Assembly (NCBI GenBank): GCA_903945195.1
Contig: CAJAUT010000009.1
Span: 23,231 to 87,230 of the forward strand
Source of the DNA: an uncultured bacterium
Lineage (GTDB): Bacteria > Patescibacteriota > Microgenomatia > UBA1400 > UBA12108
Direction: 5' to 3'
Length of the DNA stretch: 64,000 nt
The position numbers and the translations under genes were made by a program. Positions within the stretch are counted from its first letter, which is position 1. Every line of letters begins with the position of its first letter. Under the pieces are notes generated by a model, which saw nothing but the letters and a program-made list of their open reading frames with translations, had not been told where the DNA came from and ran no database searches. This document shows, piece after piece, positions 42,195-61,121 of the stretch.

Positions 42195-42281
42195 AAGATC
42201 TGACCCGGTCTCCTGATTGTGTTTTGAAGTCGACTAAACATCTTGGCCTTTGGCCAGGATTTCCTTAGCGGGTCAGACCTT
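42195..42281. repeat. MITE family A (copy A6), intergenic between dnaN and virB4
   Basis: agatctgacccggtctcctgattgtgttttgaagtcgactaaacatcttggcctttggccaggatttccttagcgggtcagacctt. The track ORF 41894..42298 is its translation. Confidence 0.8.
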
Positions 42282-44210: not shown

Positions 44211-44256
44211 ATATTCAAAGTATACAGTACTGCCCTTAGTACCAAAAGGGCTTGGG

Positions 44257-44895
44257 TTATTTGGTAATATTGGGGGCGACTATGGCTTGTTCGTAGTCGG
44301 AGGCTGTCGTGAACTTTTGACCTTTGACCGTCGAGTTATAAAGTGAGTGGAATAGCTTCATGAGATTCTGAGAGTTTACCTGTTCGGCAGCCAGTCCGAT
44401 TCTACTCAACTGTTTAATGATGTGGTCCCTTTTTGGTTCTAGATCGGCCTTGGCTTTTTGAATTAAGTCTTCAGTTATTTCTACTTTTCCAGAAAGGGTG
44501 ATGATTTGGTATGAAACTATCAAATAGAACTTTTTATCCAAAACATTTTGCTCTGTGATTGTAGTATCTATAAACTGGCGATAATTGTGCATGCGCTCTT
44601 TGAGAATTTCATCTTTAAGCTTTTTTTCTTGTGTGGCTAGTAGTTCTAGATAGGCGCTAATATCTTTTTTTTCAGATTTGATGACTATTTGAACCGGGAA
44701 AGAAAGGGAGTTGAGTAGTCCGGCATAGGCATAAATAGTCGCGTCTTGCTCTTCTTCAGATAGTAAGCCAAAATTGATTGCGGAAGTCTTTATGACAACA
44801 CTACAGATGCCGTTCTTTAGAATAACTAGATCATCTCGAATTGTTTCGATGTCTAAATGATCTTGGGTTGTTGCGACAATGATTGAGTCAGACAT
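44257..44895 (-). CDS. Hypothetical soluble protein in the T4SS operon
   Basis: 212 aa, no TM and no motif recognised; position between the PrgI-like gene and virB4. Confidence 0.35.
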   Translation of the reverse strand: MSDSIIVATTQDHLDIETIRDDLVILKNGICSVVIKTSAINFGLLSEEEQDATIYAYAGLLNSLSFPVQIVIKSEKKDISAYLELLATQEKKLKDEILKERMHNYRQFIDTTITEQNVLDKKFYLIVSYQIITLSGKVEITEDLIQKAKADLEPKRDHIIKQLSRIGLAAEQVNSQNLMKLFHSLYNSTVKGQKFTTASDYEQAIVAPNITK

Positions 44896-44951
44896 AAATA
44901 TTAGTATAACCTAAAATCACAAATCCTAAATTCTCCAATTCTCAAATTATT

Positions 44952-45953
44952 TTAAACTGTAACTCTTAACTCTACGGGTGAGAGGATAGTGTTATTTACG
45001 ACTATTTGTTGTGGAGCAAAAGTGAGGCCCATCTTATCTACCTCTATCACATAGGTGGCTGGGGAAAGAGGCGTGGAAGTATAAAATTGGCCCAAGGAAT
45101 TGGTTTTCATTGCCCGCTGGGGGATTCCGTCGCTACTGACTATTTGGACAATGGCATTTTCTATCAATTTCCCGCTTTGATCTACCACAGCGCCAGTAAT
45201 TAAATTGGGATCTTTGGGGGAGGCGGGAAGAGATATATTTTTTGGGGCAGTTCTTTCTGGGGCGGCACGTGATTGGGGGGCTGACGGGGCTGTAAAGATG
45301 GTGTTTGTAACCTGTTTGACTAGTCCTGGCGTCACAATGACCGCTTCTTTGGGAATGGGGGTGGAATCTGGAAGTGGTGTATGTAAGACAATTCCTGCGA
45401 CCTCTGTGGCAGGATTCAATTTTCTAACCAAGATTGAAGGTTTGGTAATTATTTCTTCTACTTTTTTTAGCGTCGAATCTGTCTGAGTGATTTGAGGCAC
45501 AGAACTAAATAAGCCATCTAGAGATTTTACGATACTAGCCTCCTTCTCGGTTAAGTCTGAGATGGATGACTGATTACTAGCGGCTACTGGAGCTTTGATG
45601 GTTTTTGTAATGGTGGTGATGACTTCTGGAGCGTGGGCCTCAAATAAAAACAGTCTAGGGATTTTGTTGGTTTTTTGCCAGGTGAATCTTGTGGGAGCAT
45701 AGATGGATTTGATAAAGTTGATGATCCACTGATCGAGGGGGCGATCTTCTAGAGGGAAAAATGCGAGTCCGGCTCCAAAGAGGAGAGAGAGGATAACTAG
45801 TGGCCATTTGACTATAAAAATAAGATTACTGGCAAAGAAAAGATAGGCCAATACCATACCGCTGGCTAATTCTAAGAACTGTTTAAGGGTCATGTCTCCT
45901 ACCAGGCGAAACTGGTATTGAGTGACATTTTGTGGGATTGGATGTTGTTGCAT
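44952..45953 (-). CDS. PrgI/VirB3-like two-TM protein with a C-terminal Pro-rich linker and beta-sandwich-like domain
   Basis: N-terminal GDMTLKQFLELASGMVLAYLFF...WPLVILSLLFGAGLAFF resembles the PrgI-family FGLTxRQ + 2 TM pattern; C-terminal carboxypeptidase-regulatory-like fold guess. Confidence 0.4.
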   Translation of the reverse strand: MQQHPIPQNVTQYQFRLVGDMTLKQFLELASGMVLAYLFFASNLIFIVKWPLVILSLLFGAGLAFFPLEDRPLDQWIINFIKSIYAPTRFTWQKTNKIPRLFLFEAHAPEVITTITKTIKAPVAASNQSSISDLTEKEASIVKSLDGLFSSVPQITQTDSTLKKVEEIITKPSILVRKLNPATEVAGIVLHTPLPDSTPIPKEAVIVTPGLVKQVTNTIFTAPSAPQSRAAPERTAPKNISLPASPKDPNLITGAVVDQSGKLIENAIVQIVSSDGIPQRAMKTNSLGQFYTSTPLSPATYVIEVDKMGLTFAPQQIVVNNTILSPVELRVTV

Positions 45954-46011
45954 ATATTAACAGTTTATCAGAGAATCATTACGCTACGCACGCGCAACAC
46001 TAGACAAAGAT

Positions 46012-46635
46012 TTATTTTTTTGTAGCTGGTTGAGCAATTTTGTATTGATGAGAGTCTGGAGCGAGTCCATTTTGGGTCACCCAAGCCTTGGCTTGTAGAA
46101 TAATGTCTGAGGGGGTAATTTTTGAGTCCAAAATGGTGATCTCTAAAGTAAGGGGGGCACTATAAACCAGTGAATATCCCTGTGTAAAGCGTGGAGTTTC
46201 CCCCATTAATGGATATTGAGCATCCATTTTGTCTTGGACTTGTTGGAGAAATCTGGGATCTGTTTGTCCCGGAGCTGTACTAAAAGTATAGATTGAAACT
46301 ACCTGGTCTAAATACTTGATAGTTAAGACGTATTTTGTGTTTAAGTATAAATATTTTTTGTGACTTAGGGATATGGTTTGTTTGTCGACTTGATTGATGG
46401 TCCAATTCTCATCTGGACTAGATGCAATAGAAATATCTGAGGCCAATATAGATTTATTAAATTGTATTTGAGGATTTATCATTACACTATTTTGCGTAGA
46501 TTTATCGAGAGGAGTTGTGGCCTCAATTGTTATTGGAATGGGCCTGTATGACATAGGCAATAAGATTAAGGTACCCAGAAGAATAATTCCTATAGAGAAA
46601 ATTATTAGGTTTTTTCTTGATAAATATTTATTCAT
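46012..46635 (-). CDS. Hypothetical secreted/membrane-anchored protein
   Basis: 207 aa, N-terminal signal/TM (LIIFSIGIILLGTLILLP), no motif. Confidence 0.35.
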   Translation of the reverse strand: MNKYLSRKNLIIFSIGIILLGTLILLPMSYRPIPITIEATTPLDKSTQNSVMINPQIQFNKSILASDISIASSPDENWTINQVDKQTISLSHKKYLYLNTKYVLTIKYLDQVVSIYTFSTAPGQTDPRFLQQVQDKMDAQYPLMGETPRFTQGYSLVYSAPLTLEITILDSKITPSDIILQAKAWVTQNGLAPDSHQYKIAQPATKK

Positions 46636-46644
46636 AGTTTTATT

Positions 46645-49512
46645 TTACTTCTTTCTAAGGCATCCACTAATAAGAGATTTTGCGTAAAAACAACCCGATG
46701 TCCCAGAATCTGGGCGTACTATACCAGGGCCTGTGGCGTTGGCATCTACACAAGTAAATTTTTGACCTCCAGCATCTGGATTGATTACAACCCCTATGTG
46801 ACCGACAGTTTTATCACCACACTCATCTACTCCCATGATAAAAAGATCTCCTGACTGCATATTTGGACAACCAACCAAATATTTATATCCTTCTACTTTA
46901 TATGAGGCGTACATACAGGCATTTACTTGCGGAAAACCTGGTCCGGCGCTAGCGGCCGCCAATCCAACACACTGAAGATGTTTTTCGGTTGTTGGCCAAC
47001 CATCTGTAAATTGTGAAGTTTCTAGTTGAGAGACTGCGCCTTCAAATGGCTTCAGAGCAGCAATAACACACTGCCATTTTGGGCTAGATATGCCGCCTAT
47101 CATGAGGGGATTTAACTTACAGTCGGTAAGAGCTTTGTAGATACATTGGGCTGCGTTTGCGACTGGATTGTTTGTAGTAGTGCCGCTTATGTCACAAACA
47201 ACGGAGGCACCAATAGTTCCAGTTTCTATTTTTGAGGTGATGATGGCGTCGTTGCCAAGAGACATGGAAAGAGTGATGCCTCCAACTGCAACAACAATAG
47301 AGGTTGTGGCTATAGAGCTAATAGTGGCGCCTACACTGTTTACAAATCCAGCCCACCAAGCGCTAACTAGTGCTCCTGCAGAGCCAAGCGCCGTAGAAGC
47401 CCAACCAGCGATTGCTCCTGCTTGAGAATATAAATATCCTAGTAATGCTCCAAGTGCAGTCCCTATCATAAGTACTCCCCATAGTGGTAAGGAAAACCCA
47501 ATGAGGAAAAATGAAACTAGGGCCACACTAAAGCCAATGATTGCACCGAGGATTGTGGGACCAGCTATCCCCATGAGCATGGCTAGTCCAGCAATGTTTT
47601 TGAGTACCCAACCCGCAATGACGTCTGCATTTTTTATCGCTTCTGGTGCTCTTTTGGCTTGTTGCATGACCCAGAGTCCAGCCTGGATGGCAAAAGATGC
47701 CCCTCCAGAAAGAGATCCAGCAACTAACCCAGCGCCCACCCAAGCTAAAAACTTCCCGGCAAGTTTTTCTCCACCAATTTTGGCGCCTTGTTTGACTAGC
47801 CAGTTGCCAAATTTGATGCGGAAGTGGGTTTTTGCTGAACCAATAAATCCTTCATACGAATACCCACCATTTTTGTACCAAGTGAGTCCTGTTTTGAGCC
47901 ATTGCGGCAGGTTTTTATTTGTGGCAATTTTTGAAATCCATCCACCCCATGATGCCAGTCGATGATCTGAAGAAAGAAAAAAAGCGATAGTTCTATGATT
48001 GTTTAAAAAACCATTATATGCTGTAGAAATACTTTCTCGAACACTGGTAACGGCGCCATAAACATTTCTGATAATAGGGATGTTTTGTGGGGACAGGGCG
48101 GTTTTGATTTTAAGAACGGCTTGATCGTAGGCGAGCCTAGATTTGTAGACACTGTCAATTAGGCCATGGTTTTCGCCGAGATATTTTTGAAGGTTGTCTA
48201 ATTGAGATTTGATGTCAGACGGGCTATATCCAGATTTTAATAATTGACTGGCAAGCTGTTCTCCCGAATAACCACTTCTGGTTAAAGTGACGATTAGCGG
48301 ATCTACGCCAGAATTTTTGGCAATGTGTGAGACTAGGCTGGCTGGCCTTAATCCTAAAATATCTGGTAAATCTCCAGCACTTGGTTCTAGGCCATTGGTA
48401 ATGCGGGCAAAATAAGTCCCAGTAGAGGGGTGATTGAGAGCCGCTTCTATAAGTCGATCTTGATCAACTTGTGTTAAATTGTATTTTTTGATTAATTCTG
48501 GGGTGATGGCGTTGCGCAGAGCCCTAACTTCGAAAGGGTCTTTTTTGATAAATCTATCGCTAAGCGAGGGCGATTCTAATGCATCAATAGTTGCTGAATG
48601 TAGTGATTTAACTAGATCATTACCCAAAGAATTTGGGTTGTCTCTACCCACGCCAGTCTCTTTTTGCCAGGAATTGATGGTGTTTTGAAGCTCATCTTTG
48701 GCCTGCGTGGGAGTGAGACCATGTTGTTTGTTGATATTTGCAAGACTTTCGAGATTTTCGTCTGTGTCTGATTTACTGAACCTCTCATTGTTGAGGAGAG
48801 TTGAGAGGTTTGTGGTGATATGGTCTACGTCCTGCCCTTCGGCAACGAGCGTGTTTTGGAGGGCTCTCCAGGTTGGAGAATTGGCTACGGCTTGATCTAG
48901 GAGGGCCTTGGTTTGGGCCTGGGCTTTAACTGGATCTGTAGTATCTATATTGTGAAGGGCGGGTGATAGTTCGGCTATCAAACTATTTTGCATTTGTCTG
49001 ATGTAGCCTGAAGAGGCCGAGCCAGATCTAGTCAGTGGCTCTAGAGCCTGTGCGACACGAGAATCTAGGAGATTTTTTGTTTGCCAGTACTTTTGAGCCC
49101 GCCTAACGGATTCGTTGTAGGCATTGATCTCGACCTTTGGATTTGTGGTTTTTTGGTCAACTTCTTCTAGGTGTGTTTGGTAGGCCCGGAGGATGTTTTC
49201 TCTGGTTTCTCTATCTGGGATGGAAGACTCTTTTTGTTTGTTGGCAAAAAGCAAAATACTATTGTATAGAGGGCGATAATTGGAGGGATTTTCCAGATCT
49301 AAAATCTTATCGCCAAGGAGGTTGTTGCGCTGGAAATCATCGACCAATGCTTTGACTTCACGATTGGTAAAGACGACTTTGGAGTCGCCGCTACCCAGCT
49401 CATAATCGTCTTTGGGGTGGCGGATGAGCTGAGAGACTAGTTCTAGCACTCCAAAAGGGGTACCAAAATTGCGAACTAGCTCTGATTTGGTAAGGTTGGC
49501 CATATACTCCAT
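46645..49512 (-). CDS. Large T4SS-associated protein: N-terminal soluble region, VirB6-like polytopic membrane segment, C-terminal CHAP (NlpC/P60-like) peptidoglycan hydrolase domain
   Basis: 955 aa; Gly/Ala-rich TM cluster in the middle (GLAMLMGIAGPTILGAIIGFSVALVSFFLIGFSLPLWGVLMIG...); C-terminal Cys...His arrangement (LQCVGLAAASAG...GCPNMQSGDLFIMG...GHIGVV) typical of CHAP domains. Confidence 0.55.
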   Translation of the reverse strand: MEYMANLTKSELVRNFGTPFGVLELVSQLIRHPKDDYELGSGDSKVVFTNREVKALVDDFQRNNLLGDKILDLENPSNYRPLYNSILLFANKQKESSIPDRETRENILRAYQTHLEEVDQKTTNPKVEINAYNESVRRAQKYWQTKNLLDSRVAQALEPLTRSGSASSGYIRQMQNSLIAELSPALHNIDTTDPVKAQAQTKALLDQAVANSPTWRALQNTLVAEGQDVDHITTNLSTLLNNERFSKSDTDENLESLANINKQHGLTPTQAKDELQNTINSWQKETGVGRDNPNSLGNDLVKSLHSATIDALESPSLSDRFIKKDPFEVRALRNAITPELIKKYNLTQVDQDRLIEAALNHPSTGTYFARITNGLEPSAGDLPDILGLRPASLVSHIAKNSGVDPLIVTLTRSGYSGEQLASQLLKSGYSPSDIKSQLDNLQKYLGENHGLIDSVYKSRLAYDQAVLKIKTALSPQNIPIIRNVYGAVTSVRESISTAYNGFLNNHRTIAFFLSSDHRLASWGGWISKIATNKNLPQWLKTGLTWYKNGGYSYEGFIGSAKTHFRIKFGNWLVKQGAKIGGEKLAGKFLAWVGAGLVAGSLSGGASFAIQAGLWVMQQAKRAPEAIKNADVIAGWVLKNIAGLAMLMGIAGPTILGAIIGFSVALVSFFLIGFSLPLWGVLMIGTALGALLGYLYSQAGAIAGWASTALGSAGALVSAWWAGFVNSVGATISSIATTSIVVAVGGITLSMSLGNDAIITSKIETGTIGASVVCDISGTTTNNPVANAAQCIYKALTDCKLNPLMIGGISSPKWQCVIAALKPFEGAVSQLETSQFTDGWPTTEKHLQCVGLAAASAGPGFPQVNACMYASYKVEGYKYLVGCPNMQSGDLFIMGVDECGDKTVGHIGVVINPDAGGQKFTCVDANATGPGIVRPDSGTSGCFYAKSLISGCLRKK

Positions 49513-52887: not shown

Positions 52888-52902
52888 TTTAAGTTAAAAA
52901 GT

Positions 52903-54417
52903 TTATTTGGCTTTTCCGCCTGGTTCTTGTGGAGCACTACTGAGACCTGTGTTGCGGATTTGATTTCCAAGCATTTTGGATTGGAGGCGGGCTGCGCGCT
53001 CTTGCTGGAGACTGGAGATGTAGGCTTTGGGTAGGTATGAGGCTGCGCCATAGCCCTGTCCAATACCAGCCATGATCTCTGAGGTGTATTTGCTCTGCTC
53101 GACCTTTAGCGTGTCTCTGGTCATTTGGGCAGCTGCTGGGACCATCATAATGATAAAGATACCCAGGAGTGCCATAAAGGTTTCTTGGATACTAACTGGC
53201 GTGGTTACTTCAGAATTGTCGACAAAAGATAAAAATGGTGGAACCCATCTGGTAGAATCGGTCTCTCCACCCTGTAGATATCCCGTATTTACCTCGAATG
53301 GATTTACTTGATTACCTTCAATGACTAGTTTTTCTGTACCAGGTCCCATCAGTATGGCTCCAAATAATAACATGGCTAGCACTGTGGGGAAAACGGCTGC
53401 ATTGGCTAGTAGATTTCTAGCCCAGTTGGAAAAAGATTTTGATCCAGGTATACCGTTCATTAGTAGTTGAAGGGGAGACACCACAGTTAGGACGATGATC
53501 ATAAAGTATGACTGCATCAATTGCCAGAGAGTCTTGAACATGCCAATAAGTACTCCTAGTCCTATCACGGCAAATGCTAGTCCTTGAGTGACTCCACCTA
53601 GTTTGGCTAAGCCACTAGAAGCAGTGATTTGGTCTGTAAAAGAACCAATGGCTAGGGCTGCGATTGTGTGGATTCTATCTCTACCAGATAACATCATATA
53701 CATGATGTTGTTGTTTAACACTTTATCCATCACTCCACCCGCATCTTTGATGAGACTTCCAGCTTCGGCGATATAAACTATTAAATACATAGATAAGTAA
53801 ATGAGGTCAACAATAAATCCCGCAATGGCGTACGAGAAGGTAATGAGTAGAAGAGTGACTAGTAAGTTGGGGAGACTATTTTGGATGGAAATGATGGTTT
53901 GAGCATTTATCTTTGTCCTGAGCATGATCATGACCCCGATAACTAAGAAGATTATGATGTAAAGAGAATAGGCTACATTTCTAAAAGCTTTCCAGATTTG
54001 TAAGACTGGAGATAGTGCTTTGTAACCAATTCCTTGAGCTTGGACTTTGGTAAATCCAGGAAGCCCAATATTGTTGCCTAGATCGGCGAGATATTCGCCC
54101 GTATTGATTGGTGGCACCATAAGCGCAGTTGTAACGTACTTGGTAATTCTAGGTGTGATGCCAGAAACTGCTTGAGATCCGTCGGCAGAAGGGGAGTAAC
54201 CAACAATATATTTTTCTTGCGACATTTCTTCTGAACTGACAGTGGCACCAATGTCTGAATCTGGTGAGCAGCCGCTGACGTTGCATCCTACGGCAAAAGT
54301 ATAGGTTTCAAAAAGTCCACGACTAGGGGCGACTTGTCCATCTGCGGCGCGCGCCATTGTGACAAAAGAAAATGCGGACACGAGAAGGAGTGTAAAGATA
54401 GATAGTATTTTACGCAT
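52903..54417 (-). CDS. VirB6/TrbL-like polytopic membrane protein with a signal peptide
   Basis: 504 aa; signal peptide MRKILSIFTLLLVSAFSFVTMARA; at least 6 TM helices with Gly-rich segments; no enzymatic motif. Confidence 0.5.
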   Translation of the reverse strand: MRKILSIFTLLLVSAFSFVTMARAADGQVAPSRGLFETYTFAVGCNVSGCSPDSDIGATVSSEEMSQEKYIVGYSPSADGSQAVSGITPRITKYVTTALMVPPINTGEYLADLGNNIGLPGFTKVQAQGIGYKALSPVLQIWKAFRNVAYSLYIIIFLVIGVMIMLRTKINAQTIISIQNSLPNLLVTLLLITFSYAIAGFIVDLIYLSMYLIVYIAEAGSLIKDAGGVMDKVLNNNIMYMMLSGRDRIHTIAALAIGSFTDQITASSGLAKLGGVTQGLAFAVIGLGVLIGMFKTLWQLMQSYFMIIVLTVVSPLQLLMNGIPGSKSFSNWARNLLANAAVFPTVLAMLLFGAILMGPGTEKLVIEGNQVNPFEVNTGYLQGGETDSTRWVPPFLSFVDNSEVTTPVSIQETFMALLGIFIIMMVPAAAQMTRDTLKVEQSKYTSEIMAGIGQGYGAASYLPKAYISSLQQERAARLQSKMLGNQIRNTGLSSAPQEPGGKAK

Positions 54418-54443
54418 AGTGGTATTGTACTAGATTTTACATT

Positions 54444-56990
54444 TTACTTACAGCTATAACTTTCATAATAATCAAATGCCCGTTTCCAGTGATTGTTGTC
54501 TGCTGTTTGAGCTCCTGATGATCCTCCAGGTCCTGAGTAAGCAGCTTCTGTACAGTACCCAGTATATTGACGCATAGAAGTGGATATTCTTTCTGGTGTC
54601 CACTCGCACGAGTTGGCTGGACCAGTAGCACTAAGATAGAAAGGATGTCCCCAACATGATGCTGGAGCAGGATACGCTCCTGACCCACCACTTTCTTTGG
54701 CTAGCTTGGCGGCTGCGGCAAAGGTGGCATCAATCACGTTGCATGGTGAGAACTCTACTCTTCCAGAGTCAATGGCTTTTGATGATTCACTATAATCTGG
54801 AGACCAATCATATTTACCACCACCCTTTGGGGTAGACAAGAAAGCAAATGGACCTCTTGCTCCTGTCCCAGATGCTAGTGAATCACAATTTGGTACTTCG
54901 CCTCCGCAAACGCTCCAAGCCTTTACGTTTGCCTCAGTCCAATCCCAACGATAATCACCGCCCTCAGAAATAAATGCACTATATAAAATAGATGCGGGAA
55001 CCTTGTAAGTGGTGGCAGCCAAATTAAATATTTTTACTAGAGTTGGGGGAAGTCCCGAATCACACAACGAACAACTGAGATCTGAGCCACTTAAATCTGG
55101 AAGTTCGGTGGAGCTACAGGTATTGATTAATTTGGAAGGTTGGCCGCAGGAATTGACGGCAGTGCCATCTGCGATCATGCGCGGGGTATAAATGTAATCT
55201 GATCTATCTGTACCTTTGCAAGGCATGAAAGCGGAGTTGTTTACTTTTATGGTTTTAGACAATCTTTCATTCATGCCAAACAACTCTCCTTCTTTTGAAA
55301 CCACAACATTGATATCATTATTTGTTTTCAAATATTCCTTAGATAGTTCGGTGGATGGCATGAGATTTGCTAGAGATGGGAGCTCGAGAAATCTACTGGC
55401 CTGAGACCAGGATTCGCCGATCATATAGGTGCGTCTTTTGTTGGGGATTACTTTTAATAATATCTTCATTGAGATATCAAATAAGTTGGTCATGGAGGGC
55501 TCACCGTGCACCGCATTAGCATCTTGCTTGTTATAGTCTTCTTCGGAGGCTTTTGGCCTTCGAGGCGGTGGATTTTTCTCTGGATTATATAATCTATTTG
55601 GATAATCTAGTATAGAGCCAAGCTTCTTAACTGTTAGTGGTCCATATCTAGTCACAGTGTTTTCGGGAGTGGCTGATTCGGCCTCGGCGTCTGTGTTGTT
55701 ATTGCCAAAAACCAAGGCAGTTGGCATGTGAGTGACGTCTGCTCTTGGCTCTGCAAAATAATTTGCAACTAGAGGAATCTTTTTCCCCATATCTGCCAAT
55801 AGGGCCTTACCAATTGCTCGCGGATTAGTAAGTGATGCTTCGATAATCATTCCCTCTGTTGCGGCTCTAGCAGAATAATTGTCTACCAAGGTACCTTTGT
55901 GAAGAGCGAAGTTGTATTTGCCAGACGTATCACTTTTACTGCCAAGTGCTAAAACTAGCGACCCGATTGATAAGGCAGGAGCATTTGTGTCTTTAGGGTA
56001 GAGGGGGGTACATTTGAAATATTTTACCCAATCCTCGTCATTTTTTTCGGCAAGTTTAAAGTTGTATAACCACTTTGCATACCAAGTGCTGTTTTGGAGA
56101 TAGCTGGGAACAGGGCGAAGCGAGGGATTTTCTGCGGCTCTAAACTCTGCATCTATTTGTTCTTGACTGAAGCCTTCTGGTAGTGGGGCGGAAAGATCGT
56201 ATTCTGTTTGCCAAATTTGTCGATAGTTTTCTGGCTTCATGTCTCCTGGTATTTTATCGTTGTAAATATCGATAAATTCGAGAGTTTCTCCATCTATTGT
56301 TACTTTTTCTTTCCAGTTGATTCCTCCTACAGGGAGCTCTTTGTGAGGATTGTTACTTTTTTGATAATTGATCCAGGTGGAAAATGCTCTCCATAGCAAA
56401 CTAAGCCTTAGTTGATTTTGATAATCAGAGGGCAATATCATGTCGTGTGAGCCCATGGTAAGTACGTTTGATGACTGAGAGCACTGATTGGCGGTGAACA
56501 TGTGATTGTAGCTTTGCCAACCTGGGACCGCGAGCCCATCAGTCCCACTTGAGTCGGTGCCTATAAATTTTTTTGAGTATGCTGGACTTTGATTAAATTT
56601 ACATTTTCCCTTTGTAGAGAGTGGATTTTGCTTGTTTACCATTCTTTGACATTGACCAGTGATGGGCCTGTCTTCCTGTCGATCATTTTGTTGTGGATAT
56701 ATAACATTGGCAATTTTGTCACACGAAGTTGGGTCTGTCGTATCACAGGTGACGTTTTTTAACTCGTCTTCGTTTAATACAATCATGGTTTCGGGGATCC
56801 CTTTTTCTCCTTCTAGAATGATTTCTAGGTTTTGATCTGCAATATATCCTGTAATCATTTGAGAATATATATCTACATCATATTTTGTTTTTGGTTGTTC
56901 TGCATTGACTCCTCGATCTATTTTTGGGAATATAACAAATAATCCCAAAAATATTAGGATAGATATTGAAATCTTTTTTAGAATAATCAT
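54444..56990 (-). CDS. Large secreted Cys-rich hypothetical protein
   Basis: Start taken at the internal Met (MIILKKISISILIFLGLFVIF, signal/TM) to avoid a 70-bp overlap with the upstream paralog; about 848 aa; many Cys in the C-terminal 250 aa. Confidence 0.45.
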   Translation of the reverse strand: MIILKKISISILIFLGLFVIFPKIDRGVNAEQPKTKYDVDIYSQMITGYIADQNLEIILEGEKGIPETMIVLNEDELKNVTCDTTDPTSCDKIANVIYPQQNDRQEDRPITGQCQRMVNKQNPLSTKGKCKFNQSPAYSKKFIGTDSSGTDGLAVPGWQSYNHMFTANQCSQSSNVLTMGSHDMILPSDYQNQLRLSLLWRAFSTWINYQKSNNPHKELPVGGINWKEKVTIDGETLEFIDIYNDKIPGDMKPENYRQIWQTEYDLSAPLPEGFSQEQIDAEFRAAENPSLRPVPSYLQNSTWYAKWLYNFKLAEKNDEDWVKYFKCTPLYPKDTNAPALSIGSLVLALGSKSDTSGKYNFALHKGTLVDNYSARAATEGMIIEASLTNPRAIGKALLADMGKKIPLVANYFAEPRADVTHMPTALVFGNNNTDAEAESATPENTVTRYGPLTVKKLGSILDYPNRLYNPEKNPPPRRPKASEEDYNKQDANAVHGEPSMTNLFDISMKILLKVIPNKRRTYMIGESWSQASRFLELPSLANLMPSTELSKEYLKTNNDINVVVSKEGELFGMNERLSKTIKVNNSAFMPCKGTDRSDYIYTPRMIADGTAVNSCGQPSKLINTCSSTELPDLSGSDLSCSLCDSGLPPTLVKIFNLAATTYKVPASILYSAFISEGGDYRWDWTEANVKAWSVCGGEVPNCDSLASGTGARGPFAFLSTPKGGGKYDWSPDYSESSKAIDSGRVEFSPCNVIDATFAAAAKLAKESGGSGAYPAPASCWGHPFYLSATGPANSCEWTPERISTSMRQYTGYCTEAAYSGPGGSSGAQTADNNHWKRAFDYYESYSCK

Positions 56991-56992
56991 AT

Positions 56993-57274
56993 TTACAGAC
57001 CGAGCTTGAACTGAGTGACTCTGGCACCAGTTAAGTTCTCTATGAGAAGTAAAATGAGCCAACTGCCAATAGCCAATGCTATGCCGGCGATTGCGCCTCC
57101 CATGATACCTTTACCTTTTTTCATAGAATCTGGATTTCCGGCGCCAGTTAGAAAAGTAAAGCCTCCTACGAGGATCATGATGAAAGAAATAAGACCGATT
57201 AGGGGAATAATAGCCAAAAGAACATTCCCAATATATAGAGATAGATCTGAGAGTTGAGCCGCTTCTTCTTCCAT
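56993..57274 (-). CDS. Small two-helix pilin-like protein, paralog P7 (most divergent)
   Basis: 93 aa: TM1 ...ILVGGFTFLTGAGNPDSMKKGKG..., TM2 IAGIALAIGSWLILLLI; same architecture as P1-P6. Confidence 0.55.
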   Translation of the reverse strand: MEEEAAQLSDLSLYIGNVLLAIIPLIGLISFIMILVGGFTFLTGAGNPDSMKKGKGIMGGAIAGIALAIGSWLILLLIENLTGARVTQFKLGL

Positions 57275-57288
57275 GAAATCATTATAGC

Positions 57289-57315
57289 AAAAAGTCCCCT
57301 CGCGGGGACTTTTTG
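57289..57315 (-). terminator. Intra-operon rho-independent terminator between pilin-like paralogs P6 and P7
   Basis: Perfect hairpin agtcccc-tcgc-ggggact with T/A runs on both sides (aaaagtcccctcgcggggacttttt). Confidence 0.55.
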
Positions 57316-57335
57316 AATAAATTTAACTAAAGATC

Positions 57336-57686
57336 TTAGTAGGCTTTTGGTGGAGTAATGTTGCCACCCAAGATATCGATACCAAAGAAATATTGGATGA
57401 TAAGCATGACAGCCCAAGCTGAGGCTACGACTGCTAGACCAACTAGAGCAGCGGTGATACGATCGCGAGCTTCTTGAGTTTTGCCTTTGTCACCACCTGA
57501 ACTAATCCACTGAATACCACCCCAGATAAGGAACATAAAGACCATAAGAGCTGAGACAAGGAGTGCTCCTTGGACCGCGCCTTTGATGAGGGTGCCGATA
57601 TTTGTGATAGCAACTCCTTCTGGTTTGCTAATGGATAAATCTGGAGCAGCGGGGGCTGCTTGCGCTAACTTGACTAGAAATGACAT
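57336..57686 (-). CDS. Small two-helix pilin-like protein, paralog P6
   Basis: 116 aa: ...LIWGGIQWISSGGDKGKTQEARDRITAALVGLAVVASAWAV... Confidence 0.6.
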   Translation of the reverse strand: MSFLVKLAQAAPAAPDLSISKPEGVAITNIGTLIKGAVQGALLVSALMVFMFLIWGGIQWISSGGDKGKTQEARDRITAALVGLAVVASAWAVMLIIQYFFGIDILGGNITPPKAY

Positions 57687-57724
57687 ATTATTTTCTCCTT
57701 TTCTTAATATTAGTTTTTATTTTA

Positions 57725-58024
57725 TCATTTAGCAAGACCAATGCCGAGGAAGTAATCGATGAGTAGGTATACAGCCCAGGCCGAAGCCACTATAGTTAGC
57801 CCGATAATGCCGTTGGTAATTTTACCTTTTGCTTCTTCTAGCTTTCCCTTGTCTCCGCCACTCATGATCCATTGAACTCCACCATAAACTAAATACAAGA
57901 AAGTGGACAAGCCGGCTACCAATAAAATAGCTCCAAATGATTTTTGAACAAAAACTCCAAGAGATTCGTTGATTGCTATCCTTGATTTAGCTTCGGTGCC
58001 GATATTTACATTAAATGATCCCAT
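57725..58024 (-). CDS. Small two-helix pilin-like protein, paralog P5
   Basis: 99 aa: ...LVYGGVQWIMSGGDKGKLEEAKGKITNGIIGLTIVASAWAV... Confidence 0.6.
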   Translation of the reverse strand: MGSFNVNIGTEAKSRIAINESLGVFVQKSFGAILLVAGLSTFLYLVYGGVQWIMSGGDKGKLEEAKGKITNGIIGLTIVASAWAVYLLIDYFLGIGLAK

Positions 58025-58028
58025 AAAT

Positions 58029-58367
58029 TTATCCTGCTGTAGGCCAACTAAAGTTTAGTATATCCATATTGATGGCGGATTCAATGAATTTGATGATTAC
58101 ATAAGAGGCCGCTAGGATCACTAGGCCTACTAGACCTTGAGTGATCTTGCCTCTTGCTTCTTCAATTTTACCCTTGTCTCCACCAGCTGTGATCCAGGTC
58201 ACCCCGCCAAGAAGGAGATAGAGTAAAAATGCTAGCCCTCCCACCAAGATGATTGTTTGCCAAAGGGTGGCGATGGTGATAGCAAACTGACCAGCCTGGG
58301 TTTCGTTGGCAGCTCCTCCTCCTGGTACAGCTAGATTTGTGATTTGGGCAAGTGCTTTTTTAATCAT
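58029..58367 (-). CDS. Small two-helix pilin-like protein, paralog P4
   Basis: 112 aa: ...LLLGGVTWITAGGDKGKIEEARGKITQGLVGLVILAASYVI... Confidence 0.6.
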   Translation of the reverse strand: MIKKALAQITNLAVPGGGAANETQAGQFAITIATLWQTIILVGGLAFLLYLLLGGVTWITAGGDKGKIEEARGKITQGLVGLVILAASYVIIKFIESAINMDILNFSWPTAG

Positions 58368-58371
58368 ATGT

Positions 58372-58743
58372 TTATTGGAACTTTATGACTCCCGGTGAAA
58401 TCAATGATGCGGGATTTAATATGTTGATACCAAGTGCTTGTCCTACGATCCAGACTATTGAGTAGGAGAGGGTGATGACGATCATGCCGATAGCGCCATT
58501 TGTCATCATGCCCTTGGCTTTGTCGATTTTACCTTTGTCACCGCCGGCCGTGATCCAGTTGAGACCGCCTAGAAGGAAATATAAAACAAAAGCTATACCC
58601 GCTACGACTGTAAGGATGACTAGTACGTTGCTGACGAGCTTTTCTACGGCTCCCGTTGCGCCTGCTACGCCATCTCCTGGCTGATAACCTCCTGGAGTGG
58701 TAATCTTGGAAAAATCTATACCCTGAGCAAGTAGTTTTGTCAT
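58372..58743 (-). CDS. Small two-helix pilin-like protein, paralog P3
   Basis: 123 aa: ...FLLGGLNWITAGGDKGKIDKAKGMMTNGAIGMIVITLSYSI... Confidence 0.6.
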   Translation of the reverse strand: MTKLLAQGIDFSKITTPGGYQPGDGVAGATGAVEKLVSNVLVILTVVAGIAFVLYFLLGGLNWITAGGDKGKIDKAKGMMTNGAIGMIVITLSYSIVWIVGQALGINILNPASLISPGVIKFQ

Positions 58744-59099
58744 GGTGTTGCGCTCCCTGGTCCAATAATTTTGGGTGTCAATATAGCCCCTGCATTACCA
58801 AATAACACAAAGGAGATGATGCCTGTGATGGCCGCCGCTGCAACCATGATAACTAGCCCAATGAGAGAAGTGGTAATAGATTGCTGGGCAGCCTCGATCT
58901 TTTTTTGGTCACCCGCTGCAGTTATATAGCTGAATCCGGCAATCATGAGGTTAAAAAATGTCCAAAGTCCACCCACTACAAAGATGATGGTAACGACATT
59001 GGTAATAAATGCAGGCAGCCCTGTGCTGACGTCTGTATAGCCGTTTGAACCTACTTTTGTGAGTGGATTTATGATGTCTGTGCCTAGTAATCCTGCCAT
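58740..59099 (-). CDS. Small two-helix pilin-like protein, paralog P2
   Basis: 119 aa: ...LMIAGFSYITAAGDQKKIEAAQQSITTSLIGLVIMVAAAAI... Confidence 0.55.
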   Translation of the reverse strand: MAGLLGTDIINPLTKVGSNGYTDVSTGLPAFITNVVTIIFVVGGLWTFFNLMIAGFSYITAAGDQKKIEAAQQSITTSLIGLVIMVAAAAITGIISFVLFGNAGAILTPKIIGPGSATP

Positions 59100-59101
59100 A
59101 T

Positions 59102-59437
59102 TTATAAACTCGAATTAAGTATCTGTACCCCTGTAACTACCTGGATAATTTGGATAATCCAGTAGGAAGCAAAAAGTACTAATAATCCTATTATAGCAGA
59201 GGTGATAGTTTTGGTGCCTTCTTCGATCTTGTGAGGGTCACCCGCATTGGCGATGATAGTAAATCCTCCAAAAATTATCATAAAAAAGATAACTAGACCT
59301 CCGGCGACATATATGTTTGGGACGATGTTGTTGATTAAATCTCCCACGCCGGTATAGGCAGTTGTTGCACTATCTTTTTGAAATCTTAAACAGTCACCTA
59401 AATTTGTAGGACATTCCATGTTTTGAGTATAGCGCAA
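59102..59437 (-). CDS. Small two-helix pilin-like protein, paralog P1 (operon-proximal)
   Basis: 111 aa: ...IIFGGFTIIANAGDPHKIEEGTKTITSAIIGLLVLFASYWI...; starts 19 bp from the divergent sigma-factor gene. Confidence 0.55.
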   Translation of the reverse strand: MRYTQNMECPTNLGDCLRFQKDSATTAYTGVGDLINNIVPNIYVAGGLVIFFMIIFGGFTIIANAGDPHKIEEGTKTITSAIIGLLVLFASYWIIQIIQVVTGVQILNSSL

Positions 59438-59456
59438 GTTGTATAATCCATAAAGT

Positions 59457-59990
59457 ATGAATGAACTGATAAGTCTAGTGTTATCTGGAGAAAAAGGAGC
59501 AGCAACTAGGTTTTACAAAGAGTTTGCGCCCAAACTACGCAGATATCTAAACATAAAACTGCCAGAGGGAGAGGTGGAGGAAGTGCTGCAAGATACTTTT
59601 CTTTCGGCTTTTGACTCGCTCCCACTTTATAGAGGAGAATCGAGTGTATCTACTTGGCTCATTTCTATAGCTAGGCATGAGGTGGCTGATTTTTACCGGA
59701 AAAAATATGTCAGGAGCGCAATAGAGCACACAGCGCCACTTTTTGAAAACATGGTGTCGGAACTGCTATCACCAGAGTTTGAATCGGAAAAGAAGAAAAT
59801 AGAGAAGAAGTTTTTTGCTACATACCGCAAACTATCTAGTCAGTATCAAGACGTGTTGTCTTATAGATTTGAACTGTCGATGTCTGTAAAAGAGATAGCG
59901 CAGCGAATGGATTTGTCTTTTAAGGCGACAGAGTCACTATTATATAGAGCGAGACTAGCGTTTAGAGAAGAATATGAAAGCGGAAAATAG
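59457..59990 (+). CDS. ECF-type sigma-70 family RNA polymerase sigma factor
   Basis: Region 2 (LQDTFLSAFDSLPLYRGESSVSTWLISIARHEVADFYRKK) and region 4 (VLSYRFELSMSVKEIAQRMDLSFKATESLLYRARLAFR); 177 aa. Confidence 0.75.
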   Translation: MNELISLVLSGEKGAATRFYKEFAPKLRRYLNIKLPEGEVEEVLQDTFLSAFDSLPLYRGESSVSTWLISIARHEVADFYRKKYVRSAIEHTAPLFENMVSELLSPEFESEKKKIEKKFFATYRKLSSQYQDVLSYRFELSMSVKEIAQRMDLSFKATESLLYRARLAFREEYESGK

Positions 59991-60207
59991 TTTTATTTTG
60001 CAGCTAGAGCAGAAAGCTAAAGAGCAAAAACTTCTAGTAAAAACAGAGATAATGCCAGAGTGGGCAAAGGGAATAGGCGGGTGGCTTACAGTGAACCCGT
60101 GGAGAGTGATAATACCCATTAGTGCACTAGCATACTGCATACTGCGTACGGCATACGGCTACGGTTTTAGAGAATTTGTGCTTGGGCTATTTGGGGGATT
60201 TGCATGA
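59974..60207 (+). CDS. Small single-TM protein downstream of the sigma factor (possible anti-sigma component)
   Basis: 77 aa, one hydrophobic helix (VIIPISALAYCIL); overlaps the sigma gene by 17 bp. Confidence 0.35.
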   Translation: MKAENSFILQLEQKAKEQKLLVKTEIMPEWAKGIGGWLTVNPWRVIIPISALAYCILRTAYGYGFREFVLGLFGGFA

Positions 60208-60509
60208 GGAAGATAGTTTTGTGGATGACTTATGTGTGGGCGACAACGCTGGCTGGGCTTGCCATGCATCCATACCAATCGATTAAGAGGATGGTACTAA
60301 ATAAACCGATTTTGCTGCCAGTATCTTTGTCGCCGGTTATTGGACTGATAGGACTATTTGTAGTTGGAAGGGTGGGGTCGTATATTTTTACGCTTGGAGT
60401 TATTGGCAGAGAATTGATGGCGATGATGCTTGGAGCGACTTTGATAGGACTCTTGCTCTGGCAAGGATTGCTTTTGGCACTCGTGATTAGGTTTTGGCGA
60501 GCTCGTTAG
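60204..60509 (+). CDS. Small 3-TM membrane protein (possible anti-sigma component)
   Basis: 101 aa, three hydrophobic helices, start overlaps the previous stop by 4 bp. Confidence 0.4.
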   Translation: MRKIVLWMTYVWATTLAGLAMHPYQSIKRMVLNKPILLPVSLSPVIGLIGLFVVGRVGSYIFTLGVIGRELMAMMLGATLIGLLLWQGLLLALVIRFWRAR

Positions 60510-60868
60510 AGACCTTCGACGATTTCTACTTCACCAAAATATTTCATTTTGAGGAGTTGTTTGTCGCTAGTTAGGAAATAATCACAGTGAGAAGAAGATG
60601 CTGAGTGAAGCTGAATGTTGTCTTCAAGATCTGAGGTGGGATTATGAAGACTTTTAGTAAGTATTTCAGTTGATAAATCAACAAAAGAAAGGTCTCTGAG
60701 TGAATTGAGTAGTAGTTGGTTGGGAATTTTTTTCTTGGAGATATATGAATAAATATGATATGAAAGTGGAGAAACAAACACTTCATTATTTAGTAAAAAT
60801 GAACGCTTGGACCTATCTCTTTCCAAGATATCAATGAAGTAGTTGGTATCAAGATAGACCTTGGCCAT
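60506..60868 (-). CDS. PIN-domain toxin (VapC-like)
   Basis: N-terminal VYLDTNYFIDIL (catalytic Asp) and a later FLTSDKQLL; 120 aa. Confidence 0.6.
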   Translation of the reverse strand: MAKVYLDTNYFIDILERDRSKRSFLLNNEVFVSPLSYHIYSYISKKKIPNQLLLNSLRDLSFVDLSTEILTKSLHNPTSDLEDNIQLHSASSSHCDYFLTSDKQLLKMKYFGEVEIVEGL

Positions 60869-61121
60869 ATTTATCCATTAGATGTTTACGATATATTTTC
60901 TCTCTTTGAGCATGTGTAGTTTTGGGTAGGTTTAGCTCATCTAGGAGCTTGCCAAATCTTTCAGCGTTGAACTTTTTGGGTTGTTTGTTGATGGTGGGTG
61001 AAATAGTTGCCACAATTTTGGAACGATGAATTAACTGAATTGACTTTCCCGCCATTAAATTGGCTATTAAATCTGAAGATTGAGTTCTGAGCTGAGTGGT
61101 AGTGATGTAGTTCATATACAT
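60849..61121 (-). CDS. Phd/YefM-type antitoxin
   Basis: 90 aa; N-terminal ITTTQLRTQSSDLIANLMAGKSIQLIHRSKIVATISP fits the Phd/YefM fold pattern; overlaps the PIN gene by 20 bp. Confidence 0.5.
   Translation of the reverse strand: MYMNYITTTQLRTQSSDLIANLMAGKSIQLIHRSKIVATISPTINKQPKKFNAERFGKLLDELNLPKTTHAQREKIYRKHLMDKYGQGLS

Follow-up and report, generated by a model that had tools for sequence, protein, structure and literature searches.

Seven tandem PF18895 pilin paralogs in a chromosomal type IV secretion locus of a Microgenomates-type bacterium keep their order across related loci

Seven minus-strand ORFs follow one another between positions 59437 and 56993 of a 64,000-nt stretch of DNA (referred to as the window, meaning the whole stretch that was analysed). 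They very probably constitute the VirB2-like pilin module (PF18895) of the origin-proximal chromosomal type IV secretion system (T4SS) that is typical of Patescibacteria, in a genome of the Microgenomates/Woesebacteria type. The positions of the array are ancient, ordered and individually constrained, and therefore most likely represent non-interchangeable parts of one heteromeric structure. We named the genes W1 to W7 in the order of transcription, based on the ORF listing:

59102..59437, minus strand: W1, first pilin paralog; 111 aa from TTG 59437, loop AGDPHK
58740..59099, minus strand: W2, pilin paralog; 119 aa, loop AGDQKK
58372..58743, minus strand: W3, pilin paralog; 123 aa, GGDKGK loop, short N-terminal MTKLLAQ
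58029..58367, minus strand: W4, pilin paralog; 112 aa, GGDKGK loop, N-terminal MIKKALAQ
57725..58024, minus strand: W5, pilin paralog; 99 aa, GGDKGK loop
57336..57686, minus strand: W6, pilin paralog; 116 aa, GGDKGK loop
56993..57274, minus strand: W7, most divergent pilin paralog; 93 aa, loop AGNPDSMKKGK

For W1, the ATG at 59419 is more likely to be the start than the TTG at 59437. It yields a protein of 105 aa, the length of the public gene call, and a TATACT lies 7 nt ahead of it. The intergenic gaps from W1 to W7 measure 2, -4, 4, 4, 38 and 61 nt, with the 3' end of W2 and the start of W3 overlapping by 4 nt (ATGA). The 61-nt W6-W7 spacer, which contains a terminator hairpin and a -10 box, is longer than the 0–38 bp of the original prediction. 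Pairwise identities among the seven paralogs range from 17 to 45% (mean 33%); W4 is 40–44% identical to W3, W5 and W6, and W7 shares only 17–30% with the other six. Each protein has two hydrophobic segments and, between them, a short K-rich loop with 2–4 K/R residues. ORFs, identities and hydrophobic segments thus confirm the predicted row of seven paralogous two-helix genes on the minus strand. The GGDKGK motif described as conserved is exact in W3–W6, but differs in W1, W2 and W7 as listed. Only three columns of the alignment are invariant, all of them Gly, and variation is greatest in the N-terminal and C-terminal (outside) parts.

We found no hydrophobic segment ahead of helix 1 in any of the seven proteins, and thus no Sec leader in this genome. 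The window copies retain only a 7–10 residue 'M..LAQ' remnant; some orthologs, both distant and close ones, have a complete signal peptide with LAQ or AQA at its end. W5 itself has no signal peptide, while its orthologs in three related loci (L006, L007 and L014) carry one at the N-terminus; the W5 start corresponds to the would-be cleavage point of close orthologs. The leader that had been predicted as part of a conjugative-pilin layout is therefore vestigial here.

All seven paralogs match PF18895 (T4SS_pilin), five of them above the curated cut-off, with membership defined as a score at or above the gathering threshold of 26.6 bits against the family HMM. W1 scored 44.1 bits (E=2.2e-11), W2 33.5 bits (E=4.3e-8), W3 28.8 bits, W5 38.9 bits and W6 33.4 bits. 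W4 is slightly below the cut-off (26.3 bits, E=8e-6) and W7 is below it as well (24.3 bits, E=3.4e-5); both align throughout with the remaining paralogs. More than 2200 homologs, nearly all already annotated as PF18895, came from Microgenomates, Woesebacteria and Collierbacteria, and the array relatives are MAGs of Microgenomates, Woesebacteria and other Patescibacteria. W1–W7 are almost certainly a T4SS component of the PF18895 pilin family. The predicted pilin identity was thus borne out by the very family that had been proposed for searching, and the T4SS context agrees. The accompanying remark that the motif was not recognised from described pilin families is not supported: it is the PF18895 loop, and such arrays have already been published. 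Patescibacteria VirB2-like pilin arrays are defined by at least two tandem PF18895 genes with a Patescibacteria-type T4SS; here there are seven.

A direct link to VirB2/TrbC was not detected. None of the seven paralogs matched PF04956 (TrbC/VirB2) at E<=1 in a Pfam search, and hhalign of a 67-sequence family alignment against an alignment of 9 verified VirB2/TrbC proteins gave a probability of 0.7% over 11 columns. VirB2/TrbC homology of the array is not demonstrated here, by sequence or by fold. AF2 models W6 as two helices folded into a hairpin (H30-62 and H67-101; pLDDT above 90 in the core) with a predicted basic turn, GG-D-K-G-K. Conjugative pilins of diderm T4SSs, namely VirB2/TrbC (PF04956) and TraA, are helical hairpins of ~70–90 residues with a short basic turn between the helices, a layout to which the predicted hairpin may correspond. 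They are also encoded together with VirB4 and VirB6, and a working mode of membrane pool, extraction and polymerisation may be shared. They differ in that the array has no detectable sequence or profile similarity to them and no long Sec leader, VirB5, VirB7, VirB9 and VirB10 are absent here, the host is monoderm, and there are seven paralogs instead of one. W1, W2, W5 and W6 gave sub-threshold matches to NCBIfam NF045849, the Mycoplasma ICE pilin-like conjugal transfer protein (Mbov_0395 / MMCAP2_0565), with E=1e-6 to 3e-5 (W2, E=1.2e-6) and ~70 of 80 profile positions covered. Their 12–28 bits fall below the 40-bit cut-off, and W1–W7 are therefore not members of that family. The Mycoplasma protein is also a small two-helix protein of an MPF-FATA-type element, but its gene is single-copy and located on a mobile element.

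The array is part of a chromosomal T4SS locus beside dnaA/dnaN, in which VirB6-like, PrgI/VirB3-like and VirB4 genes are present. Its neighbours are T4SS and housekeeping genes, including the following:

59974..60509, plus strand: two small membrane proteins of 77 and 101 aa, downstream of the sigma gene (ORFs)
59457..59990, plus strand: ECF-type sigma-70 factor (TIGR02937, 67.4 bits; cut-off 42.9)
54444..56990, minus strand: 848-aa protein, secreted or membrane-anchored, its C-terminus rich in Cys; start 2 nt past the W7 stop
52903..54417, minus strand: 504-aa polytopic membrane protein, divergent VirB6-like candidate (AF2 model and Foldseek)
42273..49512, minus strand: second T4SS block (Pfam, PHROG)
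46645-49512, minus strand: 955-aa protein with a weak C-terminal peptidoglycan-hydrolase signal
44952-45953, minus strand: 333-aa PrgI/VirB3-like protein (Pfam PrgI, 30.8 bits)
42273-44210, minus strand: 645-aa VirB4 ATPase (P-loop_TraG E=2e-27, AAA_10, CagE_TrbE_VirB)
second T4SS block, minus strand: 207-aa Ig-like protein
second T4SS block, minus strand: 212-aa TraC-N-like protein

The 848 aa follow the public call (the listed ORF has 872 aa from a TTG). This protein has no match in Pfam, PDB or PHROG and evolves fast: of 80 related loci, only 5 have a recognisable homolog. The 504-aa protein has no Pfam match. Its AF2 model (pLDDT 75) has TrwI/VirB6 of R388 as top Foldseek PDB matches (7o3v_F, 8rtd_L, 8rt9_F and 7o3v_G; E=0.049 and prob 0.96 for 7o3v_F), a weak VirB6 match with a TM of 0.23–0.37. 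The gene lies two genes downstream of the array and is linked to it in 55 of the 80 related loci; judging from the model, a role as pilin assembly platform is possible. W7 is followed by the 848-aa gene, the 504-aa gene, a 1116-aa gene on the opposite strand and then the second minus-strand block. Contrary to the prediction, the array thus does not head a single operon that includes VirB4, which belongs to the other block, ~13 kb from the array and beyond the opposite-strand gene. A CHAP gene could not be confirmed either: the 955-aa protein gives only sub-threshold matches to Amidase_5 (E=0.027) and a PHROG endolysin (E=0.023).

The ECF sigma gene is divergent from W1, with a spacer of 19–37 bp, and occupies the same divergent position in 53 of the 80 related loci (31–83% identity). 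The sigma factor is probably the controller of the locus and thus a candidate array regulator. The genes for the 77-aa and 101-aa proteins, neither of which has a Pfam match, are co-conserved with it in 22 and 19 of the 80 loci, respectively; the 77-aa protein is possibly an anti-sigma factor.

Tandem PF18895 arrays are a published hallmark of ultra-small Patescibacteria, and the finding, though correct, is therefore not new. Quinonero-Coronel et al. 2025 surveyed 441 arrays of 2–11 VirB2-like pilin genes in Patescibacteria, which are abundant in Microgenomatia, lie near dnaA and have a mean paralog identity of 25% (PMC12102498). In Southlakia epibionticum, 6 of the 6 PF18895 genes SEML1_0014-0019 were scored essential (Wang et al. 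2023, PMC10633639), although the Tn-seq essentiality of upstream array genes could partly result from polar effects. Two of these paralogs also match PF04956 TrbC/VirB2 at about 1e-6 (PMC10633639), so that the family as a whole does have a distant link to TrbC/VirB2. The published arrays (Southlakia, Nanosynbacter lyticus TM7x and the 441 surveyed) have in common with the present one the PF18895 family and tandem diverged paralogs (33% identity here). They share a chromosomal T4SS with VirB4, PrgI and VirB6-like genes adjoining dnaA/dnaN, and, as in these arrays, no relaxase or coupling protein was seen in the window. Compared with Southlakia, there are seven genes instead of six, in Microgenomatia instead of Saccharimonadia. 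The array here has the same direction as the VirB6-like gene and precedes it, whereas the two are divergent there; PF04956 matches none of the seven paralogs here and two there, and the leaders are truncated here. The Wang 2023 and Quinonero-Coronel 2025 papers make no mention of positional orthology, of a terminator after W6 or of a link to an ECF sigma gene.

Our comparison set comprised the 80 related loci, with gene order analysed in 73 arrays. The modal array size is 7 (range 5 to 10 among relatives), so that copy number, which the original prediction had suggested comparing, proved stable. The W1 to W7 order is collinear in 55 of the 73 arrays, as opposed to 0.08 expected by shuffling, and 26 arrays are exactly 1-7. 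Positions are orthologous between genomes down to 35–50% identity. All are under purifying selection (dN/dS 0.011–0.18 over array positions), and W1–W7 are therefore real genes. W2-, W4- or W6-type genes have been duplicated in some lineages; the window, whose paralogs are at most 45% identical, shows no sign of recent lineage-specific duplication. W7 is the least conserved position (dN 0.318), and W7 and W2 evolve ~2–3 times faster than W6.

W6 is the most conserved position, with a mean ortholog identity of 86% versus 63–75% at the others and a dN of 0.110 versus 0.19–0.32. Against the nearest relative (L008), its dN is 0.009, compared with 0.095–0.169 for the other positions. Three sequence signals lie around this gene:

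57695..57700, minus strand: AAGGAG Shine-Dalgarno, 8 nt upstream of the W6 ATG
57288..57315, minus strand: intrinsic-terminator-like hairpin CAAAAAGUCCCC-GCGA-GGGGACUUUUUG, ~20 nt past the W6 stop codon
57281..57289, minus strand: TGCTATAAT, an extended -10 box whose end is 6 nt from the W7 ATG

The Shine-Dalgarno is the sole strong ribosome-binding site of the array. It shares the 38-nt AT-rich W5-W6 spacer with a TG-extended TAAAAT -10-like box, and a promoter-like site lies at 57747-57719. The hairpin has an RNA folding energy of -20.4 kcal/mol (z=-4.09). By simple criteria, which scored only about a third of the W6-type genes as positive, a hairpin with T-run follows 36 of 113 such genes versus 2 of 467 genes elsewhere in the arrays; the stem sequences of equivalent hairpins are unrelated. 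The terminator could be a mere operon-end mark. A TATAAT with an ATG 4–12 nt later was counted behind 23 of 111 W6-type genes, versus 0–7 at each other position. W7 has no Shine-Dalgarno and its -10 box is close to the ATG, so a leaderless W7 transcript is likely from the sequence, and a second transcription unit, comprising also the 848-aa and 504-aa genes, probably begins with W7. W6 combines the highest conservation in the array with its sole strong Shine-Dalgarno and a conserved terminator behind the gene. On these grounds it is our first choice for the major subunit, a role to which we would give an even chance.

It has been proposed, also in the original prediction, that such paralogs form a diverged repertoire. 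In this view they are alternative major pilins, able to replace one another, and vary the surface of the filament to suit different host strains or to escape recognition. PMC12102498 suggests this by analogy with the VirB2 paralogs of Bartonella and Anaplasma. Those genes also stand several in a row in host-interaction T4SSs, where antigenic or host variation is their presumed role. It is consistent with the high divergence within the array, the variability of the outside parts, the spread in array size with its duplications and the faster evolution of W7 and W2. However, the array here consists of fixed positional orthologs that are collinear in most relatives, with a stable mode of 7, purifying selection everywhere (dN/dS <=0.18) and no trace of recent duplication. 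Redundancy would not predict that all six Southlakia genes score as essential. We therefore consider a variable repertoire a poor fit and quite improbable. Still less credible, to the point of being very improbable, is the suggestion that these are unrelated small membrane proteins (holins, bacteriocin-immunity or c-ring-like proteins) that merely lie beside a T4SS. F1F0 subunit c does appear as a domain-level match of one Southlakia paralog (Wang 2023 table, PMC10633639). But searches of Pfam, NCBIfam and PHROGs at permissive thresholds returned no holin, immunity or ATP-synthase family, leaving the predicted holin and immunity alternatives unsupported, and homologs are absent from phage and plasmid collections. 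Furthermore, the linkage to the VirB6-like gene is kept, and the Southlakia array was lost from the Tn-seq pool along with T4SS genes (PMC10633639).

The hairpins might also be membrane-resident T4SS parts that form or line a channel for translocation, or a short stalk across the thin envelope, in place of the VirB5, VirB8 and VirB10-type parts absent from this system. We regard this as unlikely, but as a serious option. The monoderm MPF-FATA systems, which are ancestral to the Patescibacteria T4SS, are without pili (PMC12102498); the proteins have no Sec leader and the locus no cleavage machinery; the NF045849 similarity (E about 1e-6) leads to Mycoplasma, a wall-less monoderm with no known pilus; and seven conserved, non-identical parts fit a defined complex. 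On the other hand, the basic turn and the hairpin size agree with pilus subunits, and the likely high expression of W6, as judged from its sequence signals, suggests a polymer. Reviews treat pilus formation as an open possibility and favour a pilus-like structure (PMC12857230). We would put an extracellular pilus, as opposed to a short envelope conduit, at somewhat less than an even chance.

A non-redundant heteromeric assembly of the seven paralogs seems to us more likely than not. Each protein would form a hairpin in the cytoplasmic membrane, its K-rich turn facing inwards and its two termini outwards; in this genome, insertion would proceed without a functional Sec leader, possibly via YidC. 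The VirB4 ATPase would then extract the subunits from the membrane for polymerisation on the VirB6-like 504-aa protein. The product would be an envelope-spanning filament or conduit in which, as in conjugative pili, the basic turn lines the lumen. W1–W5 and W7 may be minor or specialised subunits with initiation, tip or adaptor roles, and W7 would open the second unit, followed by the genes for the rapidly evolving secreted protein of 848 aa and for the VirB6-like protein. As an analogy only, type IV pili and type II secretion pseudopili combine one abundant and several conserved low-abundance subunits that are encoded together, but their fold and machinery are unrelated and the array has no prepilin peptidase motif. 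More tentatively, all of this may add up to an ancient, fixed seven-subunit heteromeric filament or conduit, its order kept across Microgenomatia. W6 would be the major subunit, the six others minor or adaptor subunits replacing VirB5-type parts, W7 leaderless with the hypervariable secreted protein and VirB6, and the whole under ECF sigma control.

The window holds no new kind of element, as such arrays are already known. Patescibacteria, which live attached to the cells of their hosts, account for a large part of the diversity of bacteria, and their T4SS, including the pilin array, is essential for epibiotic growth in the one tractable species. The fixed seven-position order, the outstanding W6 with its ribosome-binding site and terminator, and the ECF sigma partner argue for a defined multi-subunit machine over a variable surface repertoire, and the comparative results single out W6 as the gene for first study. 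If true, the seven-subunit reading would describe the first multi-subunit VirB2-type assembly and would bear on how epibionts tap their hosts.

The array consists of seven consecutive minus-strand ORFs, named W1 to W7 in transcription order. The ORF listing and the alignment bear out the seven-gene layout of the original prediction, with small corrections. For W1, a start at the ATG at 59419 (105 aa, in agreement with the public gene call) is more likely than the 111-aa version. The array and its main neighbors are:

59457-59990 (+), ECF sigma gene, divergent from W1 and 19-37 bp apart from it
59457-60509 (+), sigma cluster: the ECF sigma factor, then two small membrane proteins (77 and 101 aa)
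59437-56993 (-), W1 to W7, of 111, 119, 123, 112, 99, 116 and 93 aa in transcription order
59102-59437 (-), W1, sub-threshold similarity to NF045849
58740-59099 (-), W2, sub-threshold similarity to NF045849
57725-58024 (-), W5, sub-threshold similarity to NF045849
57336-57686 (-), W6, sub-threshold similarity to NF045849
54444-56990 (-), 848-aa secreted-type protein with a Cys-rich C-terminus
52903-54417 (-), 504-aa VirB6-like candidate
46645-49512 (-), 955-aa protein
42273-44895 (-), 645-aa VirB4 ATPase, with a distinct 212-aa ORF before it

W1-W7 can be aligned end to end (pairwise identity 17–45%, mean 33%), with three invariant columns, all Gly. Each has two hydrophobic segments and, between them, a short loop with 2–4 Lys/Arg. 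The exact GGDKGK turn, predicted for the whole array, was found in W3-W6 only; W1, W2 and W7 carry AGDPHK, AGDQKK and AGNPDSMKKGK instead. The intergenic spacers from W1 to W7 are 2, -4, 4, 4, 38 and 61 nt, so that the predicted range holds except between W6 and W7, where the spacer is longer.

The identification as pilins was right: PF18895 (T4SS_pilin), a family that had been proposed for checking, matches five paralogs above its gathering score of 26.6 bits, with W4 (26.3 bits) and W7 (24.3 bits) just under. A family profile search returned over 2200 relatives, and almost all of the matches listed were already annotated as PF18895, so the loop motif, not recognized at first from any pilin family, is that of a described one. 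The few listed relatives that bear an organism name are from genomes of the Microgenomates group or of Collierbacteria. Sequence comparison failed to establish that W1-W7 belong to the VirB2/TrbC family. PF04956 gave no match to W1-W7 at E<=1, hhalign of the family alignment against nine VirB2/TrbC proteins from annotated plasmids was negative (probability 0.7%), and an hmmsearch of PDB sequences with the family profile returned a chance match to an efflux pump alone (E=6.7). W1, W2, W5 and W6 have sub-threshold matches (E=1e-6 to 3e-5) to NF045849, an NCBIfam family of pilin-like conjugal transfer proteins from Mycoplasma ICEs. The matches are a hint of related hairpin proteins in MPF-FATA-type elements of monoderms and bear on whether Patescibacteria took their pilins over from diderm systems.

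An AlphaFold2 model of W6 (67-sequence alignment, core pLDDT >90) shows a disordered N-terminus, a helix at 30–62, the four-residue turn GGDK and a second helix at 67–101. The basic turn and the neutral or acidic ends fit a predicted hairpin with its loop inside and its termini outside, the topology of VirB2/TraA. We found no functional Sec leaders on the window paralogs; W3, W4 and W6 have only a short M..LAQ remnant of 7–10 residues. Three W5 orthologs (L006:10328-10696, L007:9209-9598 and L014:10329-10697, in loci from other genomes; 72–79% identical) have a typical signal peptide at the N-terminus. W5 lacks it and starts exactly at their predicted cleavage point. In distant W6 orthologs (L035, L060, L024) the leader is complete and ends in LAQ or AQA. 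The pilin leader seems dispensable.

The window is chromosomal (GAPDH, GroEL, LeuRS, YidC, dnaA and dnaN are present). W7 is followed after a 2-nt gap by the 848-aa gene, the 504-aa gene, a 1116-aa gene on the opposite strand and a second minus-strand block, which encodes the 955-aa protein, an Ig-like protein, a PrgI/VirB3-like protein, the 212-aa TraC-N-like protein and the 645-aa VirB4 ATPase and is directly adjoined by dnaN and dnaA. With the VirB6-like, PrgI/VirB3-like and VirB4 genes nearby, the array sits in a T4SS locus. It does not head a single operon reaching VirB4, as had been predicted, since the 1116-aa gene separates the two blocks. The 504-aa polytopic membrane protein (AlphaFold pLDDT 75) is best matched in the PDB by TrwI/VirB6 chains of R388 (7o3v_F, E=0.049, probability 0.96), a weak but specific structural match that suggests a VirB6-like protein. 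The 955-aa protein, adjoining the PrgI-like gene, is probably the gene that had been termed CHAP. That domain was confirmed for no gene; the C-terminus of the 955-aa protein has sub-threshold matches to Amidase_5 (E=0.027) and a PHROG endolysin (E=0.023). In Southlakia epibionticum, SEML1_0011 holds the equivalent position. The 212-aa ORF has weak TraC N-terminal similarity, and its separation from VirB4 is probably not a frameshift, because Southlakia shares the two-gene layout (SEML1_0009 and SEML1_0008).

The 848-aa protein, whole or split, had no match in Pfam, PDB sequences or PHROGs; a lytic-transglycosylase-like C-terminus was considered and dropped, as no database match supports it. 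Only 5 of the 80 related loci showed a homolog, and the VirB6-like gene directly follows the array in L063, L066, L050, L082 and L041. The protein is a candidate for a hypervariable host-contact or effector component. Just past the sigma cluster, 60506-61121 (-) encodes a 120-aa PIN-domain protein (PF01850, 23.6 bits, exactly at threshold) and an overlapping 90-aa upstream ORF, a probable VapBC-type toxin-antitoxin pair.

The 80 related loci came from species-representative genomes in a search seeded with the four central paralogs. Their ORFs were scanned with an HMM built from all seven, and array members were labeled by their best BLASTP match among W1-W7. Array size ranged from 5 to 10 genes and was most often 7 (39 of 73 arrays). 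The order W1 to W7 was collinear in 55 of 73 arrays (21/21 close relatives and 34/52 distant ones, at 35–55% identity), and 26 read exactly 1-7, whereas shuffling labels within arrays gave a mean of 0.08 collinear arrays and, over 2000 trials, never more than 2. Therefore, the seven positions are, by this sequence comparison, old orthologous groups. All of them are under purifying selection relative to nine close relatives (dN/dS 0.011–0.18 where dS was estimable; the values cover only part of the gene pairs, because dS was often saturated). Constraint is by far the strongest on W6, which has a mean identity of 86% versus 63–75% at the other positions and a mean dN of 0.110 versus 0.19–0.32; against the nearest relative, L008, its dN is 0.009 versus 0.095–0.169.

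Many close relatives (L004:4205-~5000; L005, L009, L010, L014, L017, L020, L049) carry two extra pilin-like genes about 4 kb upstream, past the sigma cluster, which are absent across the whole 64-kb window. L004, L006, L010-L015 and many others are TPA MAG contigs with a Patescibacteria-type locus titled 'uncultured Pseudomonadales/Gammaproteobacteria bacterium', and L040 is titled 'Bathyarchaeia archaeon' despite such a locus; these records look mislabeled or mis-binned.

W6 alone in the array has a strong Shine-Dalgarno sequence (AAGGAG, 8 nt from its ATG), and the 38-nt AT-rich spacer before it also holds a TG-extended -10-like box. The W6 stop is followed, at a distance of about 20 nt, by a GC-rich hairpin (57288-57315, -20.4 kcal/mol, z=-4.09) that has both an A-tract and a U-tract. 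The standard terminator scan missed it, because the A/U-extended stem takes up the T-run; it was noticed by eye. In a subsequent custom scan, 36 of 113 W6-type genes were followed by such a hairpin and a T-run, versus 2 of 467 genes at other positions; the stem sequences are unrelated between lineages. Directly past the hairpin, TGCTATAAT ends 6 nt before the W7 ATG, and no Shine-Dalgarno sequence is present. TATAAT with an ATG 4–12 nt on recurs after 23 of 111 W6-type genes versus 0–7 at each other position. These signals point to a second, possibly leaderless unit made up of W7, the 848-aa gene and the VirB6-like gene. Similar boxes lie 6–9 nt before an ATG lacking a Shine-Dalgarno sequence at four places:

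57281-57289, TGCTATAAT, before W7
59420-59432, TATACT, before W1
54418-54430, TACAAT, before the 504-aa gene
59436-59456, TGTATAAT, before the sigma gene

Boxes so near the ATG suggest that leaderless transcripts are frequent in this genome. The ECF sigma gene occupies the same divergent position in 53 of the 80 related loci (31–83% identity). Inspection by eye gave no convincing ECF-type promoter upstream of W1, and no Rfam families were found in 52000-61000.

We infer that W1-W7 would reside in the membrane as hairpins, from which VirB4 would pull them out, and that the VirB6-like protein would serve as the platform for their assembly into a filament or envelope conduit, whose lumen the basic turn would face. 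W6 would be the major subunit, and W1-W5 and W7 conserved minor or adaptor subunits. A membrane-resident complex that forms no filament is the less probable outcome, though one to be taken seriously. The variable repertoire put forward originally is unlikely: the positions are fixed and orthologous, copy number is stable, selection is purifying and the Southlakia array genes are scored as essential, all of which contradicts it. In the tables of Wang et al. (2023, PMC10633639), the six PF18895 proteins SEML1_0014-0019, two of which match PF04956 too, are all scored GD/ES/ES; Table S2 of that study also gives DUF4134 as a match for these Southlakia paralogs. That the genes encode unrelated small membrane proteins is very improbable; the holin and immunity readings found no family match in Pfam, NCBIfam or PHROGs, and tblastn searches of plasmids with W1 and of phages with W6 found nothing.

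Quinonero-Coronel et al. (2025, PMC12102498) used PF18895 and PF04956 to survey 3,035 Patescibacteria genomes and reported 441 arrays of 2–11 VirB2-like pilin genes in 383 assemblies. They remarked on the proximity of dnaA and, drawing a parallel with Bartonella and Anaplasma, proposed adaptation to host strains. According to a 2025 review (PMC12857230), Gram-positive-type systems lack VirB2, with this array as the sole exception. The window array is an instance of this published class, so this kind of feature is already known, Microgenomatia included, and the claim of novelty does not hold. Orthology, terminators and sigma factors are not mentioned in the survey paper. The new details are modest: seven fixed orthogroups in conserved order, a ribosome-binding site before W6 and a conserved terminator after it, a -10 box right next to the W7 start codon, an ECF sigma partner that is likewise conserved, and the hypervariable 848-aa neighbor. 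They lead to testable hypotheses on what the essential T4SS builds.
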